From a virus (taxonomy: Duplodnaviria > Heunggongvirae > Uroviricota > Caudoviricetes): a stretch of DNA of 34,356 nt. The stretch is from the IMG/VR virus record IMGVR_UViG_2684622669_000020; one strand, given 5' to 3'. Within the stretch, counting starts at the first letter, position 1. Each line of letters opens with the position of its first letter. Positions 1 through 34,356 of this stretch are shown in pieces. Made by a program: the position numbers and the translations under genes. Under the pieces are notes generated by a model. It did no database searches. It had not been told where the DNA came from and was given only the letters and a program-made list of their open reading frames with translations.

Positions 1-669
1 ACCTTTAGGACCCTGTTCACCCCGTGGCCCTTGCTCGCCCTGAGGGCCGGTGGGTCCTGGTGTTTTTGCAATTTCCTTCGCTTCTTCCAGCGCTGTCAGT
101 GCACCGGACTCGTGCAACTCCGCGTTTTTTGCTGCCTGTTCTGCACGATCTGCATCCAGTGAAACCGAAGACACAATTTGTTCCACGTGCTTTTTATCTT
201 CGGCAACGGCTTCTGCATTCTGCTGTACGTTATCCGCCAGCGTCTGACAGTCTGCCTTTATCTTCTGCGCATCAGCGACGTGTTGCCCGGCCTGTTGTTC
301 GCTTTTCGCTGCAGCTTCCGCGCTCTGCTGCGCCTGCGCCACCATTTCCTCGAAGCGTTTCACCACGTCGGGTTTGAGGTCGCCTTCATTGGGGGCGGTC
401 AGAAAATCATTCAGTGTGCCGGGCTTTGAGTCATCGTATACAGCGATATCACCCACGCAGCACTTGGGGCCGTTCTTTTGCTTGATGTGTACGGTGTATT
501 TGCCTTTTTGCGCTTCAAAGGCATACTGTCCCGCCGCATCGGTTTCAATAACCGCGAATGATTCAGTGACCACCTCACTGGTATTAACCAGTGCATCTAA
601 ATAAATTTTGCATTCCGCCATCGGAACGCCAGCGCCATTAATAAGCGCGCCTGAGATTAATACAGACAT
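1..669 (-). CDS. Side tail fibre protein, N-terminal part (gene continues beyond window start)
   Basis: Uninterrupted minus-strand frame from ATG 669-667 to position 1 (my own translation; absent from the ORF track because no stop lies in the window). AGAGG precedes the ATG. N-terminus MSVLISGALINGAG...VYDDSKPGTLNDFL resembles the prophage side-tail-fibre N-terminal domain as I recall it. Gly-X-Y collagen-like repeats GPTGPQGEQGPRGEQGPKG at 1-57. Confidence 0.7.
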   Translation of the reverse strand, partial: MSVLISGALINGAGVPMAECKIYLDALVNTSEVVTESFAVIETDAAGQYAFEAQKGKYTVHIKQKNGPKCCVGDIAVYDDSKPGTLNDFLTAPNEGDLKPDVVKRFEEMVAQAQQSAEAAAKSEQQAGQHVADAQKIKADCQTLADNVQQNAEAVAEDKKHVEQIVSSVSLDADRAEQAAKNAELHESGALTALEEAKEIAKTPGPTGPQGEQGPRGEQGPKG

Positions 670-683
670 AAAACCTCTGAATG

Positions 684-706
684 ATAAAAAGCCGCCTGCG
701 GGCGGC
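684..706 (-). terminator. Intrinsic terminator after the fibre assembly gene
   Basis: GC stem GCCGCC (691-696) / GGCGGC (701-706) with 4-nt loop, followed on the minus strand by TTTTTAT (690-684); begins 8 nt after the stop at 715-717. Confidence 0.6.
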
Positions 707-714
707 TGTCTGAT

Positions 715-1290
715 TTATTCAAAGTCTGACCAGTCAATATCTGGCGCGTTTTCCGGTTGAATGCGATTTAACTTTATTCGTAATTTCCTGAGGGCTGTCA
801 GCTGTTCCTGTTCTTCTGGCGTCGCTTCACCAAAATCAACGGCATCCTGTAAAACGGCGATTTGCTCTCCCATCTGTTTAAGCAGACCCACTTTCTTCTC
901 TGCCGCCTGATTTATCAGCGCATTACGCCTGGCTTCTTCATCTGTCACCCACTGACTGCCATTCCAGCGTTGGTATTCGCCATCAGGAGAAACAGAAGTC
1001 ACATTTTCAGGAAGGCTTCCCAGTTCAGACACTGTTACAGCTACTCCGGTTTCTGTTGAATAAACCGTTTTCCCTCGGTGGTCTTCCATCAGATGCCATT
1101 TCATTTCATCAGCATTAAACACGGCAGCAAAACCCGCCGGAATATCAGGAGGCGCAATATCTGTTGAATTAGCTGGCAGACCTGTATGAGGTGGAATATA
1201 TGCGTCGCTTTCGCCAATAAATTCATTTGTGCCATCGAGATAATTAAATACACGAATGGTTTGTGCTTCTGCACTCATTTTGAAAGTCAT
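715..1290 (-). CDS. Tail fibre assembly protein (Mu U / Tfa-like)
   Basis: 191-aa ORF directly downstream of the fibre gene with start overlapping its stop (TAATG); size, position and sequence typical of fibre assembly chaperones. Confidence 0.75.
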
Positions 1291-2273
1291 TATGCCAGCC
1301 TCACAATATAGTTATATGCAATGTTTTTGACGGTGTTTTCGGTATTGCCTGTTGGATTTACCGTGATGGTGTGCCCGTGCGCACCCAATGCCACAGTGTG
1401 TGCATGGGCACCAATACCTACGGTGTGGTTATGCTGACCAATATCGACAGTATGAGCATGTGCTCCGGCAGTACTGGAAATCTGATTCCTCCCTGACGCC
1501 TGCACACGTTGTTTTCCGCCGACAGAGTCGCCGCCATAAACACCACCGACACTGTGCGTATGATTTCCTGTGTTATTTGTTGATTTTGTGCCGTGGTTAA
1601 ACGTGCTGACTGTCTTGGTGCCGTAGTCAAATGAACTTGTCGTTTTCGTTCCTAAATCGGTATTTGACGCACTGGCACTGTGGGTATGCGACTTGATGCC
1701 ATCCTGTTCCTGAGACAATACGGCACGACCACTGGCAGGCTTACCCTTGATAGTCCAGCCGCGCATATCAGGAATAACCCCGGACGGATAGGCAACCGCA
1801 AGTTTAGGGTAAGAGCCTTTATCAAAACTTTGCCCCTGCATTAAGGCATAACCGGATGGCACAGAATCAGATGGCCACGGGATTGGTGTCCCGACCGGTA
1901 AAGCCGTACCCTGTAAATCAGCAATTTTTTTTGCTAACGCCTTTATTGCCTTTGGGGTGGCAGCCAGTTCTTCTGAATCACTGTCTGTTGCACTACTGAG
2001 CTGAACGATACCCTTCTTCGTTAATGATGCGTCAGGAACTTTTTTCCCGACATATAAGGCCAGCGCCTCAACCAGTTGATTCTGTTTTTTCGGATCCGGG
2101 GTTACGCCAGCCTCTTTAAGGACGTTAATCACCTCCTGCTGCAAATCGCGCGTTGCCGCCTGATGATTATTCATATATTCGGCGTAAACGATGGTTCCCT
2201 CAATTCCCTGAGTGGGGTCACCATCATGAAATAACTTATCCGGCGTATTCACCGGGGGCATTAAATTCTGCAT
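1290..2273 (-). CDS. Tail fibre protein (Mu S-like) with His-X-His repeat tip
   Basis: 327 aa; N-terminal region [25 protein letters not shown] typical of Mu/P2-type fibres; C-terminal repeats [21 protein letters not shown]. Confidence 0.8.
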
Positions 2274-2845
2274 TATTCCTCCACCTCATACGTGAAATAA
2301 CAGTCTGTAAAAGCCGGTTTAAGGTCTTTAAACGTGTTTTCTAAAATGGATTCACCAAAGGCCGTCAGCGGTTCGCCGGTTGCCGATGCGCCCGTTCTGA
2401 ACCGGTAGACAGGTGTTTTTGTCCCGATAACATTGACCTGCCACGCCCAGCGGATTTCCGGTATCAGCAGACGGTCACCACAGCGGTTTATCCCCACCCG
2501 GAACGGTCGCGGCTCCGTAATGGTGATGGTATAGCCCAGACTGGCGGCAAGGCTTTTGAAGTAAGGGATTGACAGACCACCCGTGGCAGCCATTTTTACC
2601 AGTATGTTTTGCCGCCGCTCCTGTTGTGTTGCCCCTTCACGGGGGACAACACCGTACACGCGCTCCCAGTCGGACAGCGTCATCGATGCCTGCAACGGGG
2701 TGATTTGTGCCAGAACGCGCGCTGCTGACGCCTTCACGGCTTCCATGACGTCAGCCTCGGCTGTCAGTTCTGCGGAAATATATTTCCCGTTCAGGTCATA
2801 ACTGACAGGTGGCAGCATGGCGCGAAATAAATCGACCATATTCAT
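2273..2845 (-). CDS. Baseplate/tail protein (Mu gp48-like)
   Basis: ORF between baseplate J-like gene and fibre gene; start moved to ATG 2845 (MNMVDLF), which has a GAGG upstream and sits 4 nt after the upstream stop. Confidence 0.6.
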
Positions 2846-2849
2846 AAAA

Positions 2850-3929
2850 TCACCCCTCACGTGGAAAAGGCTGAATATCAATATTTCCCGGGCGCAGCCA
2901 TTCCCACGTTGACGCGTTAATAATGGCTTTTACGTTGTCTGCTGGCGTAATGATTCGCCGGTCACTGACACCGGAAATTAATGAAATCTGGGTTTCCAGT
3001 TGTGAAATAATTAATTCTTGCCCCGGCTCCAGTCGGTTCATAAAATCCGTGATAACGTCAGTTATCTGCGGTTTTATCTGCTCAACGGTCAGGCCGCTGG
3101 TTTTTACCCGGACAACGAAATCAACGGCTTTTTTCGTCGGGGCCAGCACCATCGTGTCCTTCGCCGTCACCGGGCGAACTTCCTCAATATGTGCCAGCAC
3201 GGCATTAATCAGTTCCTGCGAGGGGAGGTCATTGGCTGACGTAATGGCCACATCAACCGTTCCCAGTCCACGACGCAATGGCTCCACATATGCCGAGGTA
3301 ACGCCATCCACTTCCAGCGCCCAGCGTTTGTAATCATATTTGTTACCGCCAGCGGGTGGCCTGCGCAGAATATCCAGATAACGCGCCAGCAGGTCGGCGT
3401 CACTTTCCCTGTCCGTTCCGCCAGTCAGGGATTTAATCGTCACCGTGCTGTTGATGCCTTCCGGCGGACTGACCAGCGTTGCCGTCTGCGTTGTGGATAC
3501 GTTCGTCTGTGCGCCCGTGGTGGTGCTTTTTACCGTCACCTCCGCGCTGCCTTCATCACCGATGGTGCAGTCTGCGGTGGTGGCCACGCTGACACCTTCA
3601 CCGCGAATTTCCGCACCGGCTGGCAGCATCTTACCGGGGGTACCGGTAATCACCACCGGACCGGATGAGGCTGTTGCTTTTTTACGAAAAACATTGCGCG
3701 TGCGGCAGTGCAGCTCCAGATATTCAGGGTCTGCCGTGTCAGGAAACACCTGACGGAGGATCCACCCCTGATGCATATAAAGCCCGTCCGCCACGCCGGA
3801 TACGGCATTGGCACGAATGCGGTAATCGCTGTCAGCGCCGGTGTCGATGGTTTCTCCCGGCAGGGCGTTAGCGATATCACGTAGCTGGCGTTCTGTGTTT
3901 TCAGCAACGCCCGGAACAGGAAACGGCAT
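2850..3929 (-). CDS. Baseplate J-like protein (Mu gp47-like)
   Basis: 359-aa ORF in conserved baseplate position; start overlaps upstream stop. Confidence 0.75.
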   Translation of the reverse strand: MPFPVPGVAENTERQLRDIANALPGETIDTGADSDYRIRANAVSGVADGLYMHQGWILRQVFPDTADPEYLELHCRTRNVFRKKATASSGPVVITGTPGKMLPAGAEIRGEGVSVATTADCTIGDEGSAEVTVKSTTTGAQTNVSTTQTATLVSPPEGINSTVTIKSLTGGTDRESDADLLARYLDILRRPPAGGNKYDYKRWALEVDGVTSAYVEPLRRGLGTVDVAITSANDLPSQELINAVLAHIEEVRPVTAKDTMVLAPTKKAVDFVVRVKTSGLTVEQIKPQITDVITDFMNRLEPGQELIISQLETQISLISGVSDRRIITPADNVKAIINASTWEWLRPGNIDIQPFPREG

Positions 3930-4279
3930 TACATAATCCTCACAGGGTGTTCAAACGTCTGCGGTGTGCCCGCGTTATCCGTGACGGTGATTAGCAGCAA
4001 CAACCAGCCGCGCTGCCCCGTTTTTGTGTCAACGGTAATTGCTGTCGCCCGCCCGTCATCGAGCAGGGGCTGAAGTGCCTGGCTGGCATACTGCGCCGCC
4101 AGCCTGTGGACACGGGAAACGTCTTTTTCCCGCTTCAGTTCGTGCAGGCGTGACCCCAGCGACGCATCCGCCCAGTAACTGCCAAGCGGCGTCGCCAGTC
4201 GCAGATAAACCGCGTTATGAAGTGTATAAATCCGGCGGCGTTCGTAGTCGCCGGTTGCAGGTGAAATCGTCTGGTCCAT
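3929..4279 (-). CDS. Baseplate protein (Mu gp46-like)
   Basis: 116-aa ORF, ATG at 4279-4277 (MDQTIS); conserved position between spike and J-like genes. Confidence 0.6.
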   Translation of the reverse strand: MDQTISPATGDYERRRIYTLHNAVYLRLATPLGSYWADASLGSRLHELKREKDVSRVHRLAAQYASQALQPLLDDGRATAITVDTKTGQRGWLLLLITVTDNAGTPQTFEHPVRIM

Positions 4280-12115: not shown

Positions 12116-12350
12116 CGGAATCCACCTGTTTCTCTCTCTTCGCCTTCGCTTTTACCTGCACGGCGTCCTGTTCAGCCGTCACGGTGGTTTCAGGCTCATC
12201 CTTCACCAGAATCAGGTCACCGTCCTGAACGGCGCGCCGGTAATAAGCGGTGTTCTCAACGGTCACCGCTTCCGTGGTGATGTATTTCCGGGCGTTATCC
12301 TCCATCGGGAACTTCATCCCGGGAGCCGCCTTAACCTTCATTTTGTTCAT
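12108..12350 (-). CDS. Small conserved protein (Mu gp38-like)
   Basis: 80-aa ORF directly upstream of the sheath gene. Confidence 0.55.
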   Translation of the reverse strand: MNKMKVKAAPGMKFPMEDNARKYITTEAVTVENTAYYRRAVQDGDLILVKDEPETTVTAEQDAVQVKAKAKREKQVDSDE

Positions 12351-12912
12351 GCTGTTGCTCTCTTAATTCATCCAGACCACAGATATCTGCGCCGTATTGC
12401 GTACCAATTCGCAGTAAATCCGGGTCAGGGTCTGACAGCCTGCCGTGGTAGCGGTTGAAGAGGCGATCCGCTTCTGCGCCACGCTCCGGCCATTTGCCGT
12501 TCTCCAGCGCGTGCTCCACCCAGCGGGCATCGAACTCACAGGCAAACACGGACATTGCCCGTTCTGCCACGCCGGTGTTAAACAGCGTCCTGACCCGCCC
12601 GGGTTCGAAATAATCAATCTCCAGCCCCAAATCCTGACCGGTCAGCAGGCGACGGACGGATTCAACCAGCTGGTTTGTCCCGACTTCATCCCGGACAGTG
12701 CCTCCCTGTCTGGCGCTCTGTTCGCTGCGGGTGTTGTAATCACCCACCACAACCACAAAGCGTCCGGTGGCAATGTATTTCCGGCGTGACGTGGAATAGC
12801 GTTCGGTTTTCACGATGCCGCCGAACGTCACCCAGGCTGCCGGAAGGCTGCGAACAATCCGGCCCGGGTCTTCATCCAGTTCACCGGCATAGGTGCGGAC
12901 ATCCTGCACCAT
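12331..12912 (-). CDS. Mu gp37-like protein (head-tail joining region)
   Basis: 193-aa ORF between the gp36-like and gp38-like genes. Confidence 0.6.
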   Translation of the reverse strand: MVQDVRTYAGELDEDPGRIVRSLPAAWVTFGGIVKTERYSTSRRKYIATGRFVVVVGDYNTRSEQSARQGGTVRDEVGTNQLVESVRRLLTGQDLGLEIDYFEPGRVRTLFNTGVAERAMSVFACEFDARWVEHALENGKWPERGAEADRLFNRYHGRLSDPDPDLLRIGTQYGADICGLDELREQQHEQNEG

Positions 12913-12965: not shown

Positions 12966-13397
12966 TCAGAATGCACCTCCCCGCGTGGACTCACGCCCGA
13001 ACTGACGGGAGCCGGAGCGGATACGCACCTGTGACGATGACTGGATCACGCTGCCGGACGTATCCCGTCCGAGGTTGATTTGTCCTGCCGCGACTTTCTC
13101 CAGAAAGCGGATGGCATCCCGGTAGCGCATCTGAATTTCTTCTGAGCAGATACGGTAATCGGTCGCCAGGTTATAACGGGCGATATCGCAGCAGTAACCC
13201 ACCAGAATCCCCGGGCTGTCAGGCCACGGGGTCCGGTAACGCCCCACCAGATAGCCATCAATCTGGGCACTGGCACGCGCAAGCGCGGAGGCCAGCTTTT
13301 CTTCGTCGATGAATCCTGTCATGTCTTCATCCGTCAGTGTGCGTGCCTCGCGTTCACTGAACGCCCTGATGAACTGTTCCGGTGTGGCGTAAGACAT
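12966..13397 (-). CDS. Mu gp36-like protein (DUF1320-type)
   Basis: 143-aa ORF, MSYATPEQFIRAF..., in the conserved position after the major head gene. Confidence 0.6.
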   Translation of the reverse strand: MSYATPEQFIRAFSEREARTLTDEDMTGFIDEEKLASALARASAQIDGYLVGRYRTPWPDSPGILVGYCCDIARYNLATDYRICSEEIQMRYRDAIRFLEKVAAGQINLGRDTSGSVIQSSSQVRIRSGSRQFGRESTRGGAF

Positions 13398-33777: not shown

Positions 33778-34356
33778 ATGAAACAAGAATGGGTTGCCGC
33801 AAAAGACCTGGTAGGGCTTCATGGTTTACCTGCCACAATTCAGGGAATTCACCAAAAAGCCAAAAGGGGCGGATGGCGCAAAGAGAAAAGAATTACACCT
33901 GGTGTGAAGGGACATCAGGTATACTTCTACTTGCCTGATTTGCCTGAAAAAATACGCTGCTCCTTGGTGTCGAAAGACAGAGAAACTCCAGTGAGGAATG
34001 ATTTAAACAAAGGGTTGATATCAATACTGGAAATGACATCCGCAGAAGATCAATTCAATCTTTTTCGCGCTTTGTGTGAATTTGGCATCAAAGGAGTCCT
34101 AGAACACCTACAACAACCCACCAGGCAAGCTACGCAGGCCGACAGCGACCAGGACGAACAGGAGAATGCCATCAGAAGTCTAAACATCAGGGAATCGCTT
34201 AAAGACGTTATATGTATGGCTCTAGATGGTAATGAAGAAACCGACAAAGAGATTTTGCGACGCATCGAATCTCGTGCACGGGCTGGGTCGCCAGGTGGTC
34301 AGACCGTTGCCACGCCGGAGCAAGAAACGAAGCCTGTAAGCAAAAAATCAGCATGA
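33778..34356 (+). CDS. c: Mu-type repressor c
   Basis: 192 aa; N-terminal domain similar to the transposase N-terminus; divergent from ner; AGGGG SD; stop codon is the last 3 nt of the window. Confidence 0.8.
   Translation: MKQEWVAAKDLVGLHGLPATIQGIHQKAKRGGWRKEKRITPGVKGHQVYFYLPDLPEKIRCSLVSKDRETPVRNDLNKGLISILEMTSAEDQFNLFRALCEFGIKGVLEHLQQPTRQATQADSDQDEQENAIRSLNIRESLKDVICMALDGNEETDKEILRRIESRARAGSPGGQTVATPEQETKPVSKKSA

Follow-up and report, generated by a model that had tools for sequence, protein, structure and literature searches.

A probable accessory, collagen-like tail-fibre gene of a Mu-like transposable prophage of Escherichia coli

Introduction

The invertible G segment of phage Mu, present also in SfMu and D108, lies together with gin in a slot between the constant N-terminal part of the S fibre and the right end, and gives the phage two receptor specificities (PMC4406740). 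The N-terminus of S (gp49) of Mu docks on a loop of gp48 (PMC11915804).

Side fibres with a PfN-type N-terminal domain occur on siphovirus, podovirus and myovirus tails. The prophage-encoded EPcl proteins of E. coli, EPclA-D, consist of a PfN domain (PF08400), an Ala-rich coiled coil, a Gly-X-Y shaft and a globular C-terminal cap (Ghosh et al. 2012, PMC3368898); EPclA forms a dumbbell-shaped trimer (PMC3368898). The N domain of lambda Stf forms a 12-mer collar on the tail of Ur-lambda, and a trimeric rod follows it (PDB 9E7M, PMC12617516). The lateral fibres of the podovirus phi24B (gp61) begin with an N-terminal docking domain of ~100 residues and continue through a coiled coil into a long collagen-like shaft, which ends in a small globular domain; they dock on the tail adaptor ring and were argued to be too flexible for transmitting the trigger signal (bioRxiv 10.64898/2026.04.10.717836). 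In the Vibrio myophage XM1, which has a contractile tail and a simple Mu-class baseplate, six trimers of the collar spike gp40 bind the neck; the first ~100 residues of gp40 form an Ig-like domain, and a trimeric coiled coil comes next (PDB 7KJK, PMC10457771). The Mu-type baseplate modules of the prophages phiP27 (L54-L57) and Rac-SA53 (tail1-tail4) end with a fibre gene, tfa, a PfN fibre gene, a DUF4376 gene and the prophage end. In Alteromonas phages, experiments showed that members of the DUF4376 family act as fibre chaperones.

The window analysed here is the whole 34,356-nucleotide stretch of the viral record IMGVR_UViG_2684622669_000020 (Caudoviricetes). A sequence-only reading had noted a second, collagen-like fibre gene at its first bases, where Mu has its invertible segment. 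The results below make it probable that this open reading frame (ORF) represents the 5' portion of an accessory tail-fibre gene, the second fibre gene of the Mu-like transposable prophage itself.

Results

The window carries a Mu-like transposable prophage of E. coli. Matches to GemA, Mor and a repressor domain of the Mu type were found, and gp48, Baseplate_J and gp44-gp46 are also present; moreover, loci sharing the repressor protein of the window carry an AAA ATPase of 297 aa and a 691-aa MuA-type transposase (HTH_Tnp_Mu_1 and Mu-transpos_C). The phage collection contained no isolated phage of this family, and no match there covered more than 2% of the backbone. 'Escherichia phage Chuche' was considered as an isolated member and rejected: it shares the S-tip/tfa cassette but is without Mu-type genes in the stretch examined, where a gene for the small terminase subunit was seen and the genes are ordered as in P2.

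All fibre and chaperone genes visible in the window share one orientation, on the minus strand. The Mu gp48-type baseplate wedge protein (YmfQ family) is encoded at 2276-2842 (PF10076, 2e-30). The first fibre (1290-2273), an S-like baseplate fibre of 327 aa, has Phage_fiber_2 and Collar domains, and its residues 123-327 match the T4 gp37 tip (PDB 2XGF, E 1.2e-77), a tip of the T4 gp37/lambda Stf type. Its tail fibre assembly protein Tfa lies at 715-1290 (PF02413 Caudo_TAP, 6e-32). These domain matches bear out the S-like fibre and Tfa of the sequence-only reading, and the proposed pair of co-oriented fibre genes was likewise found.

The second fibre gene (1-669, minus strand) begins with an ATG at 669-667 and is stop-free to position 1, so that 223 codons of its 5' part are present. 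An exact-protein look-up of Tfa placed window position 1 at base 1 of contig BBWB01000016.1 (GCA_001515025.1), and the truncation is therefore an assembly break. The break falls within a 54-bp tandem repeat coding for the collagen region. As the gene is incomplete in the window, its tip and its chaperone, and also the prophage end, are known only from relatives. The ORF is 96.5% identical over 200 aa to an intact 495-aa gene of E. coli Z1323CEC0011. A Shine-Dalgarno-like AGAGG (674-678, minus strand) stands 4 nt before the ATG, and the ribosome-binding region TTCAGAGG(C/T)TTTATG is kept in relatives with a different upstream cassette. Neither the stop of the frame at the contig end nor the precedent in phiP27 and Rac-SA53 had been mentioned in the earlier reading.

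The PfN (phage_tail_N) domain, a virion-attachment collar domain, comprises residues 1-134 (268-669, minus strand; PF08400, E 4.4e-50) and matches model positions 1-134 of 134 with 169.6 bits against a gathering cut-off of 26.6. Comparison of the N-terminus with side tail fibre proteins, as had been suggested, gave lambda Stf: residues 1-92 match Stf residues 1-92 in PDB 9E7M with ~45% identity (E 2.3e-16), and this identity to a solved domain fixes the PfN fold. The AlphaFold2 single-sequence model of residues 1-135 placed a helix at 100-133, with a mean pLDDT of only 44.9 that makes it unusable. Residues 135-203 (61-267, minus strand) are rich in Ala, Glu and Gln; by composition they are presumed to form a trimeric coiled-coil rod (PCoil), and they align weakly with the coiled coil of XM1 gp40. 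The start of a collagen-like Gly-X-Y shaft follows at 1-60 (minus strand), where the last 20 residues of the ORF, PGPTGPQGEQGPRGEQGPKG, have Gly at every third position, seven in register, before the contig ends. Window bases 1-51 match six register-shifted copies of the 54-bp tandem repeat of the relative. Since the Gly-X-Y run of this 98%-identical relative goes on for ~140 residues and matches Pfam Collagen (PF01391, 1.7e-24), the triplets in the window are not a chance pattern. No signal peptide is visible at the N-terminus. Judged from its sequence, the second fibre protein has the N-terminus of a lambda-Stf-type side fibre, with collagen triplets further on, in agreement with the earlier description of a lambdoid-type ORF from 669 with Gly-X-Y repeats at 1-57.

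The protein is a member of the known PfN/coiled-coil/collagen (EPcl) family. Like EPclA-D, it is encoded by an E. coli prophage, and with a presumed coiled coil it has the same domain order. Its partner, as seen in relatives, would be a DUF4376 chaperone, and it is carried not by a lambdoid or Stx phage but by a Mu-like transposable myovirus. Mu-like prophages are mentioned nowhere in the EPcl paper (PMC3368898). EPcl fibres end in a PfC or PfC2 trimerisation cap. In the last ~150 residues of the closest full-length relative no match to PF06820 (PfC) was found, and the relative in RSHH22 has Gp53-like_C instead; the second fibre is therefore of EPcl-like architecture with a different cap. The N-terminal collar domain, followed by a presumed trimeric rod, is shared with lambda Stf, but the PfN fibre here has a collagen shaft; moreover, the gp37-like tip and Tfa that lambda uses for Stf both belong to the S-like fibre in the window. 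The layout of phi24B gp61 is presumably also the same, whereas the PfN identity to this Stx-phage type is only ~33%. XM1 gp40 shares the N-terminal domain and the presumed coiled coil, with weak sequence similarity (E 3e-4), but its distal part is a tailspike, not collagen. The PfN domains of phiP27 and Rac-SA53 are 66-72% identical to that of the window; however, these prophages integrate at att sites without transposition, their tfa-PfN spacer is 23 nt long, and their PfN fibres are without collagen repeats.

Comparison with sister prophages, whose backbones are 95-97% identical, showed what the slot may hold otherwise. At the same position they carry a fibre/tfa pair facing an opposite-strand tfa'/S'. 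The fibre segment of these G-type sisters is flanked by 20-bp inverted repeats AAACCTTGGTTTGGGAGAAG that are 1.8 kb apart, and a 31-codon serine-invertase remnant MFIGYVRASTNDQDTDLQRNALNCAGYELIF adjoins the same right end. Positions 1-3000 contained no inverted repeat of at least 18 nt; no AAACCNNGGTTT core (residual invertase crossover site) was found in the fibre region, and no invertase between the fibres and the right end in the dual-type relatives, which carry both fibres. Compared with the Mu G segment, the prophage in the window has no inverted repeats, invertase or opposite-strand S'/U'; its two fibres are co-oriented and could be produced together instead of alternately. About the first 52 codons of S are common to the window and the G-type sisters. 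The mosaic joints are located at ~codon 52 of S, within the 12 nt before the ATG of the second fibre and, in the relatives, at the right end. The proposals that the second fibre replaces an invertible G segment and that the region is a mosaic junction are both sustained, and the suggested search for an invertase and inverted repeats agrees with them.

The PfN fibre and the gene after it behave as a cassette. Among the relatives, four different shafts and tips were found behind one PfN domain. A DUF4376 gene follows the PfN fibre in Z1323CEC0011, UMNF18, RSHH22, phiP27, Rac-SA53 and the Salmonella, Yersinia and Shigella loci; it is absent at the B1172 locus. The four-gene layout is also present in phiP27, Rac-SA53 and the Salmonella and Yersinia prophages. 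YmfQ and the PfN gene lay in one joined match in at least 22 complete E. coli genomes among the matches listed; the gp48 allele was found in 38 genomes and the PfN allele in 28. A scan of one genome per species gave 11 loci, which show the cassette in Salmonella and Yersinia but are too few for statistics. A full-text literature search found no description of the fibre/Tfa/PfN/DUF4376 layout in Mu-like transposable prophages. The layout itself is ordinary cassette swapping or mosaicism, known from other enterobacterial prophages and annotated in many genomes.

The tfa-PfN spacer of the window is 45 bp long and contains no element-end sequence. Terminator scanning and folding identified in this gap an intrinsic-terminator-like hairpin (690-707) with a T-run (689-680), together spanning 680-707 on the minus strand; the terminator of the sequence-only reading, placed at 684-706, is borne out, with bounds that differ by a few bases. 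The hairpin is closed by A690-T707 and has six G-C pairs (691-696/701-706) and a loop at 697-700, with minus-strand TTTTTATCATT next (689-679). This fits the pattern of an intrinsic (Rho-independent) terminator, with a 7-bp stem including 6 G-C pairs, a tetraloop and then UUUUUAUCAUU, the termination itself being predicted. The fold has -21.1 kcal/mol (z = -3.3; 1 of 200 shuffles was as stable) and is the best terminator-like site within 1-2500. The Rfam scan of the whole window gave no family at threshold. A non-homologous GC hairpin with a T-run occupies the equivalent position in B1172 and RSHH22; no hairpin was found in the 23-nt gap of phiP27 and Rac-SA53. No sigma-70-like promoter was found on the minus strand of 1-2500. 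With a terminator-like hairpin directly upstream and no such promoter, the expression of the second fibre could therefore be low. The hairpin may have arrived together with the S-tip/tfa cassette, and it probably reduces transcription into the second fibre gene without abolishing it.

These features raise the alternative of a relic: the terminator would keep the second fibre gene silent, and the virion would make no use of its product. Such a relic would fit the canonical hairpin and T-run just before the gene, the lack of a promoter-like site in the scan and a PGAP 'partial' flag on the Z1323CEC0011 gene. However, the PfN-fibre ORFs are intact in all relatives examined (495, 538, 608 and 720 aa); the flags, which lie on both S and the PfN gene, were rejected as a pseudogene sign because both frames are intact. 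The ribosome-binding site is conserved, the matched chaperone gene is retained, and phiP27 and Rac-SA53 carry the same pair without the hairpin. Moreover, diversified tips on a conserved PfN domain are the pattern of a receptor-binding protein under selection. A silent relic is thus improbable, although it survives best among the alternatives.

Somewhat less probable still is that the two fibres compete for the same baseplate site, or that the PfN fibre has functionally replaced S. Such competition would fit two fibre genes that close the tail operon, each with its own chaperone. However, the two N-termini show no relationship; that of S is conserved in the sisters over its first ~52 residues and is the part that docks on gp48 in Mu. 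PfN, a collar domain, attaches to tail rings in lambda, phi24B and XM1, and S is intact in all relatives.

There is little to be said for a lysogenic-conversion 'moron', in which the collagen-like protein would be a surface adhesin benefiting the host cell. Its position would suit a moron, lying as it does behind a terminator at the far right end, the site of accessory genes in Mu; so would the opposite-strand accessory genes at the tfa-PfN junction of a Salmonella relative. Collagen-like prophage proteins have also been discussed with regard to EHEC virulence (PMC3368898). However, the 45-bp spacer is too short for a promoter and none was predicted there, the N-terminus is a virion-docking domain with no visible signal peptide, and the gene is paired with a fibre chaperone.

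The second fibre gene is placed within the element by the right ends of the relatives. The order in Z1323CEC0011 (98% identical) is S, Tfa, the PfN fibre (495 aa), a DUF4376 protein (198 aa), an 80-bp right end and then yigG, the element ending 80 bp after the DUF4376 gene; its fibre has a collagen shaft of ~140 residues followed by a globular domain of ~150 residues. The junction was confirmed by the K-12 empty site and the duplicated AATC. The right end of the element reads ...GCCCAGAAAAAAACGCGAAGTTAC(A), and the same right end follows the fibre region in seven loci at seven different sites; the left end was likewise found in seven loci of relatives at different sites. Target duplications were checked in three relatives (Z1323CEC0011, B1172 and UMNF18): they are AATC, TGAT and GATG, which reads as a 4-bp duplication with TG...CA ends. 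One of these insertions has an empty site in K-12. Four relatives at different chromosomal sites have the PfN fibre cassette inside the conserved right end of the Mu-like element. Because the element right end and the target duplications lie beyond the DUF4376 gene in the relative, the second fibre gene is inside the transposable prophage. The reading that assigns the ORF to an unrelated neighbouring prophage or to a host locus past a Mu right end, named in the sequence-only reading as a refuting condition, may practically be set aside: the window ends before any element end is visible and UMNF18 has another prophage with its own PfN fibre next door, but in each of four independent insertions the PfN cassette is followed by the right end, which does not separate tfa from PfN, the 45-bp spacer has no end sequence, and in UMNF18 the right end follows the DUF4376 gene, the neighbouring prophage being the insertion target.

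Discussion

The function of an accessory fibre belonging to the prophage itself may be considered by analogy with the described systems. Most likely, the second fibre would act as an accessory lateral fibre for reversible adsorption, and dual receptor specificity of the prophage may be inferred. The protein would trimerise, and its long flexible collagen shaft might offer a second receptor-binding tip for a fast, reversible first contact; the gp37-tipped S fibre on the baseplate would then trigger contraction. With a second-tip fibre and a baseplate S fibre, both specificities would therefore be shown at once, with no switching.

The origin could be explained by an ancestor with a Mu-type invertible fibre region, which might have lost the G(-) half and gin by recombination. 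The same ancestor would have gained a self-contained fibre and chaperone cassette, of the sort that ends the phiP27-type tail modules. Closely related transposable phages would have two solutions to the two-receptor problem at one locus. In one form the fibre segment is invertible; in the other a second fibre is constitutive and comes with a chaperone of its own. The recombination joints are sharply defined. The PfN and DUF4376 pair may be regarded as a portable cassette, relevant to host-range prediction and phage engineering.

The PfN domains might dock on a virion ring other than the gp48 loop used by S; the neck is possible by the XM1 analogy. In the siphovirus lambda the collar occupies the gpV/gpM junction, a site that a sheathed tail does not expose. 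A more specific proposal is that the PfN collar domain docks on the neck ring (gp36/gp37 homologues) as the XM1 collar spike does, and that the sister phages represent two interchangeable dual-host-range solutions, G inversion and simultaneous two-fibre display, exchanged by a single cassette swap at the right end. This proposal is tentative and would sooner be doubted than accepted; if true, the contractile virion would carry collagenous neck fibres besides the six baseplate fibres. As the structures of Mu and XM1 have been solved, lambda-type collar docking on a sheathed tail is now directly testable.

The lambda docking site, at the tube/tip junction, is hidden by sheath and baseplate in contractile tails, which counts against the accessory-fibre reading, as does the weak similarity to the neck-bound XM1 gp40. 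When the neck proteins of the prophage were compared with solved structures, no sequence match to XM1 chains was found, which also counts against it. The gp36 homologue (12966-13397) gave Mu gene product J (9KHX); for the gp37 homologue (12331-12912) there was no match. Among the relatives, a Salmonella locus has opposite-strand accessory genes at the tfa-PfN junction.

A second fibre gene in the Mu-like prophage

The second fibre region of this prophage is a well-delimited cassette swap. Genes of the window run on the minus strand, with a Mu-type repressor (33778-34356) on the plus strand. Loci that share the repressor protein encode a MuA-type transposase (691 aa) and a MuB-type ATPase (297 aa); GemA, a Mor-family activator, holin, endolysin, head genes and a contractile tail of the Mu type, with homologues of gp44-gp48, are also encoded. 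The repressor, transposase, ATPase and Mu-type tail therefore identify the window as a transposable prophage of the Mu-like kind that is read from the right. DNA-level matches were E. coli chromosomes (95-99% identity) at many different sites, and the family is widespread. In the assembly collection, 280 blocks carry the exact repressor protein, at many insertion sites (for example, loci L013-L016). A megablast search of the phage collection revealed no isolated phage sharing more than 2% of the backbone, and no isolate of this Mu-like family.

The gp48 wedge protein gene is followed by the S-like fibre gene (1290-2273, minus strand), tfa (715-1290, minus) and the 5' part of the second fibre gene (1-669, minus), which is open for 223 codons from the ATG at 669-667 and preceded by AGAGG at 678-674 on the same strand. 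At its tip (residues 123-327) the S-like fibre matches the receptor-binding needle of T4 gp37 (PDB 2XGF, E 1e-77). Residues 1-134 of the second fibre are a full-length match to the Pfam domain phage_tail_N (PfN; E 4.4e-50), and residues 1-92 align with the same stretch of lambda Stf (PDB 9E7M; E 2.3e-16, about 45% identity). These matches bear out the sequence-only reading, which had proposed a second side-fibre gene starting at 669 with a lambdoid-type N-terminus, and whose coordinates for the layout were right to within a few bases.

The PfN domain is followed by an Ala/Glu/Gln-rich stretch; the final 20 residues of the frame are PGPTGPQGEQGPRGEQGPKG. An exact look-up of the Tfa sequence traced the window to contig BBWB01000016.1 (assembly GCA_001515025.1), whose first base is window position 1. 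Moreover, window bases 1-51 align at six register-shifted places within a 54-bp tandem repeat (6.6 copies) of the closest relative. The frame thus ends at an assembly break within the repeat that encodes collagen, and not at a biological terminus.

The complete gene and its variants in relatives

E. coli Z1323CEC0011 is 97.7% identical to window 35-4000, without net indels. Its second fibre is an intact ORF of 495 aa, composed of the PfN domain, a helical stretch, a Gly-X-Y shaft of about 140 residues (Pfam Collagen, 1.7e-24) and, at the C-terminus, about 150 residues that form a domain without a Pfam match. The fibre stop codon overlaps the start of a gene for a 198-aa DUF4376 protein. Experiments on Alteromonas phages V22 and A5 showed that DUF4376 proteins encoded directly after fibre genes act as chaperones, or transient caps, of the fibres (PMC7289586, PMC10579305).

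Four distal parts are joined to one PfN domain among the relatives: collagen with an unknown cap; very long collagen with Gp53-like_C; a coiled coil with a globular tip, like phiP27 L56; and an enzyme-like-looking domain of about 480 residues. The last is found in B1172 (locus L010, 3737-5563), where PfN is fused to this non-fibrous domain. The domain, which has no Pfam match, looks like an enzyme, perhaps a depolymerase. The B1172 PfN gene is not followed by a DUF4376 gene before the right end. The RefSeq annotation (PGAP) labels the S-like fibre a partial pseudogene in two relatives' loci, L001 and L002 (the latter from UMNF18), and the PfN fibre too in L001 (calls at L001 12155-12704 and 13325-14059; L002 13074-13808). 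Both fibre frames are intact all the same (327 and 495 aa), and the flagged S-like fibre is 99% identical to that of the window.

Probable replacement of the G segment

The backbones of E423, F163 and TUM1881 are 95-97% identical to that of the window, with a different right-end region. After gp48 these sisters carry a fibre gene and tfa, then, on the opposite strand, tfa' and a gp53-like fibre tip. Inverted repeats AAACCTTGGTTTGGGAGAAG / CTTCTCCCAAACCAAGGTTT, 1.8 kb apart, flank their fibre region; these repeats resemble crossover sites of the Din family, for example pix and cix. They are followed by an ORF of 31 codons, MFIGYVRASTNDQDTDLQRNALNCAGYELIF (L009 4424-4516; L012 9256-9348; L008 8931-9023, loci of these sisters), which abuts the same right end and is presumably the N-terminus of a Gin/Pin-type serine invertase. 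The opposite-strand half, inverted repeats and short ORF therefore suggest that the family once had a Mu-like G segment with gin. In the window, as in at least four relatives, the PfN fibre cassette takes the place of the G(-) half and of gin. The earlier proposal that the second fibre stands instead of a G segment holds, since the sisters have a G-like segment there and the window's fibre region has no inverted repeats and no crossover-site core. Inversion in the sisters would need an invertase in trans, or the segment would be frozen.

Homology of the window to these sisters ends at 2118, at about codon 52 of S. B1172 and RSHH22 differ from the window in S tip and tfa; homology to them covers 1948-4000 and is then found only from 321/347 to 681, a block that comprises the PfN domain and 12 nt ahead of its ATG. 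The G+C content of the S-tip/tfa block (41-51%) is lower than that of the baseplate genes (52-61%) and PfN (53-55%). The homology breaks thus indicate two independently exchangeable cassettes: S tip, tfa and hairpin; and the PfN fibre with or without the chaperone. A Salmonella prophage of the same layout (L020 5650-6956) has two opposite-strand genes between tfa and the PfN fibre gene, encoding 178-aa and 249-aa proteins, so the cassette junction is also an insertion point for accessory genes. The repetitive Ile/Val/Gly/Asn-rich pattern of the 178-aa protein is suggestive of a hexapeptide-repeat acetyltransferase.

The hairpin and expression

The tfa stop codon (715-717) is 45 bp from the second fibre gene. 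Between them lies a hairpin (690-707) of six G-C pairs and a tetraloop, followed by UUUUUAUCAUU; among terminator-like sites in the first 2.5 kb it ranks highest (folding z-score -3.3). At the same position B1172 and RSHH22 carry another GC hairpin and T-run (AACGGTCGC...GCGACCGTTTTCAG), not homologous to that of the window, and the sequence common to them and the window starts at TTCAGAGG. That hairpins of unrelated sequence occupy this place speaks for a functional role at the first cassette's end. The hairpin is dispensable for the layout, because phiP27 and Rac-SA53 have a 23-nt tfa-PfN spacer without it. No sigma-70-like promoter was predicted on the fibre strand in 1-2500, and we infer that the second fibre gene would be expressed by partial read-through of the hairpin. 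In the predicted fold of 674-725 (minus), pairing continues beneath the terminator stem. It joins the final codons of tfa, CUUUGAAU, to AUUCAGAG, and the latter overlaps the second fibre gene's Shine-Dalgarno. Speculatively, this fold could couple second fibre translation to ribosomes finishing tfa.

Prophage ends

Both Z1323CEC0011 junctions were aligned to the uninterrupted K-12 yigG. On one side, 80 bp separate the DUF4376 stop codon from yigG sequence, and the second junction lies in the other part of yigG; the alignment puts the ends at TGTGGGGTAG... and ...CGCGAAGTTAC(A), with a short target duplication. The right-end sequence was found in seven loci with different host DNA beside each, always within about 110 bp of the fibre region's last gene, and the left end in seven loci at different sites. 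In the F163 locus, T replaces A after ...GTTAC. B1172 (in ydiS) and UMNF18 have matching 4-bp flanks, TGAT and GATG. With TG...CA ends the target duplication reads as 4 bp (AATC, TGAT, GATG; junctions at L001 10541, L003 5577, L010 5658, L018 2072, L002 10188 and L017 8158). The target duplication of Mu is 5 bp; taken as 5 bp here, one base is ambiguous and the first base is mismatched in two of three cases. The PfN cassette lies inside the prophage in every relative examined. The possibility that this ORF belongs beyond a Mu right end is contradicted, because the right end follows the fibre region in these relatives.

The UMNF18 Mu-like prophage (L002 615-10188; L017 7882-8235) is located, with its GATG flanks, inside the tail fibre gene of another prophage, which has a P2-type tail and its own PfN fibre and DUF4376 pair after the late control D gene. 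Motifs of the ATTCTGG(A/G)C type recur at both ends, with three copies on the left and three on the right including an inverted pair (L001 10541-10620; L003 5577-5730), and are presumably bound by the transposase.

Putative docking and function

Six S trimers of Mu dock via their N-termini on a loop of gp48 (PMC11915804). The PfN fibre should use another site, because its N-terminus is unrelated to S. Three virions of solved structure have PfN-type domains bound to rings of the tail. Ur-lambda has a collar of twelve StfN domains at the gpV/gpM junction, carrying four fibres (PMC12617516); the gp61 N-domains of phi24B on the adaptor ring carry six collagen-shafted fibres (bioRxiv 10.64898/2026.04.10.717836); and XM1, a myophage with a simple Mu-class baseplate, has six gp40 trimers on the neck (PMC10457771). 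The second fibre is weakly similar to XM1 gp40 (E 3e-4). By analogy, the neck would be the most plausible docking site, because the lambda site is buried on a sheathed tail. The phi24B authors argued that the flexibility of a collagen shaft prevents it from relaying a trigger (bioRxiv 10.64898/2026.04.10.717836), and side fibres of Ur-lambda make first contact (PMC12617516). These two points suggest that the PfN fibre is probably accessory and lets the particle adsorb quickly and reversibly to a second receptor; the gp37-tipped S fibre would trigger contraction.

Distribution and known systems

YmfQ (gp48), fibre, tfa and the PfN gene lay in one joined match in at least 22 of the 25 best complete-genome matches. 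The gp48 allele was present in 38 of 5426 complete E. coli genomes, and the PfN allele in 28 complete E. coli genomes (coverage at least 80%). Our literature search found no paper on the four-gene layout in Mu-like transposable prophages. The order fibre, Tfa, PfN fibre and DUF4376 also ends the Mu-type baseplate module of phiP27 (L54-L57), of Rac-SA53 (tail1-4) and of Salmonella and Yersinia prophages. The PfN, coiled-coil and collagen architecture of the second fibre is that of the EPcl family. Recombinant EPclA forms dumbbell-shaped trimers, in which the coiled coil measures about 16 nm and the collagen helix about 30 nm (PMC3368898).
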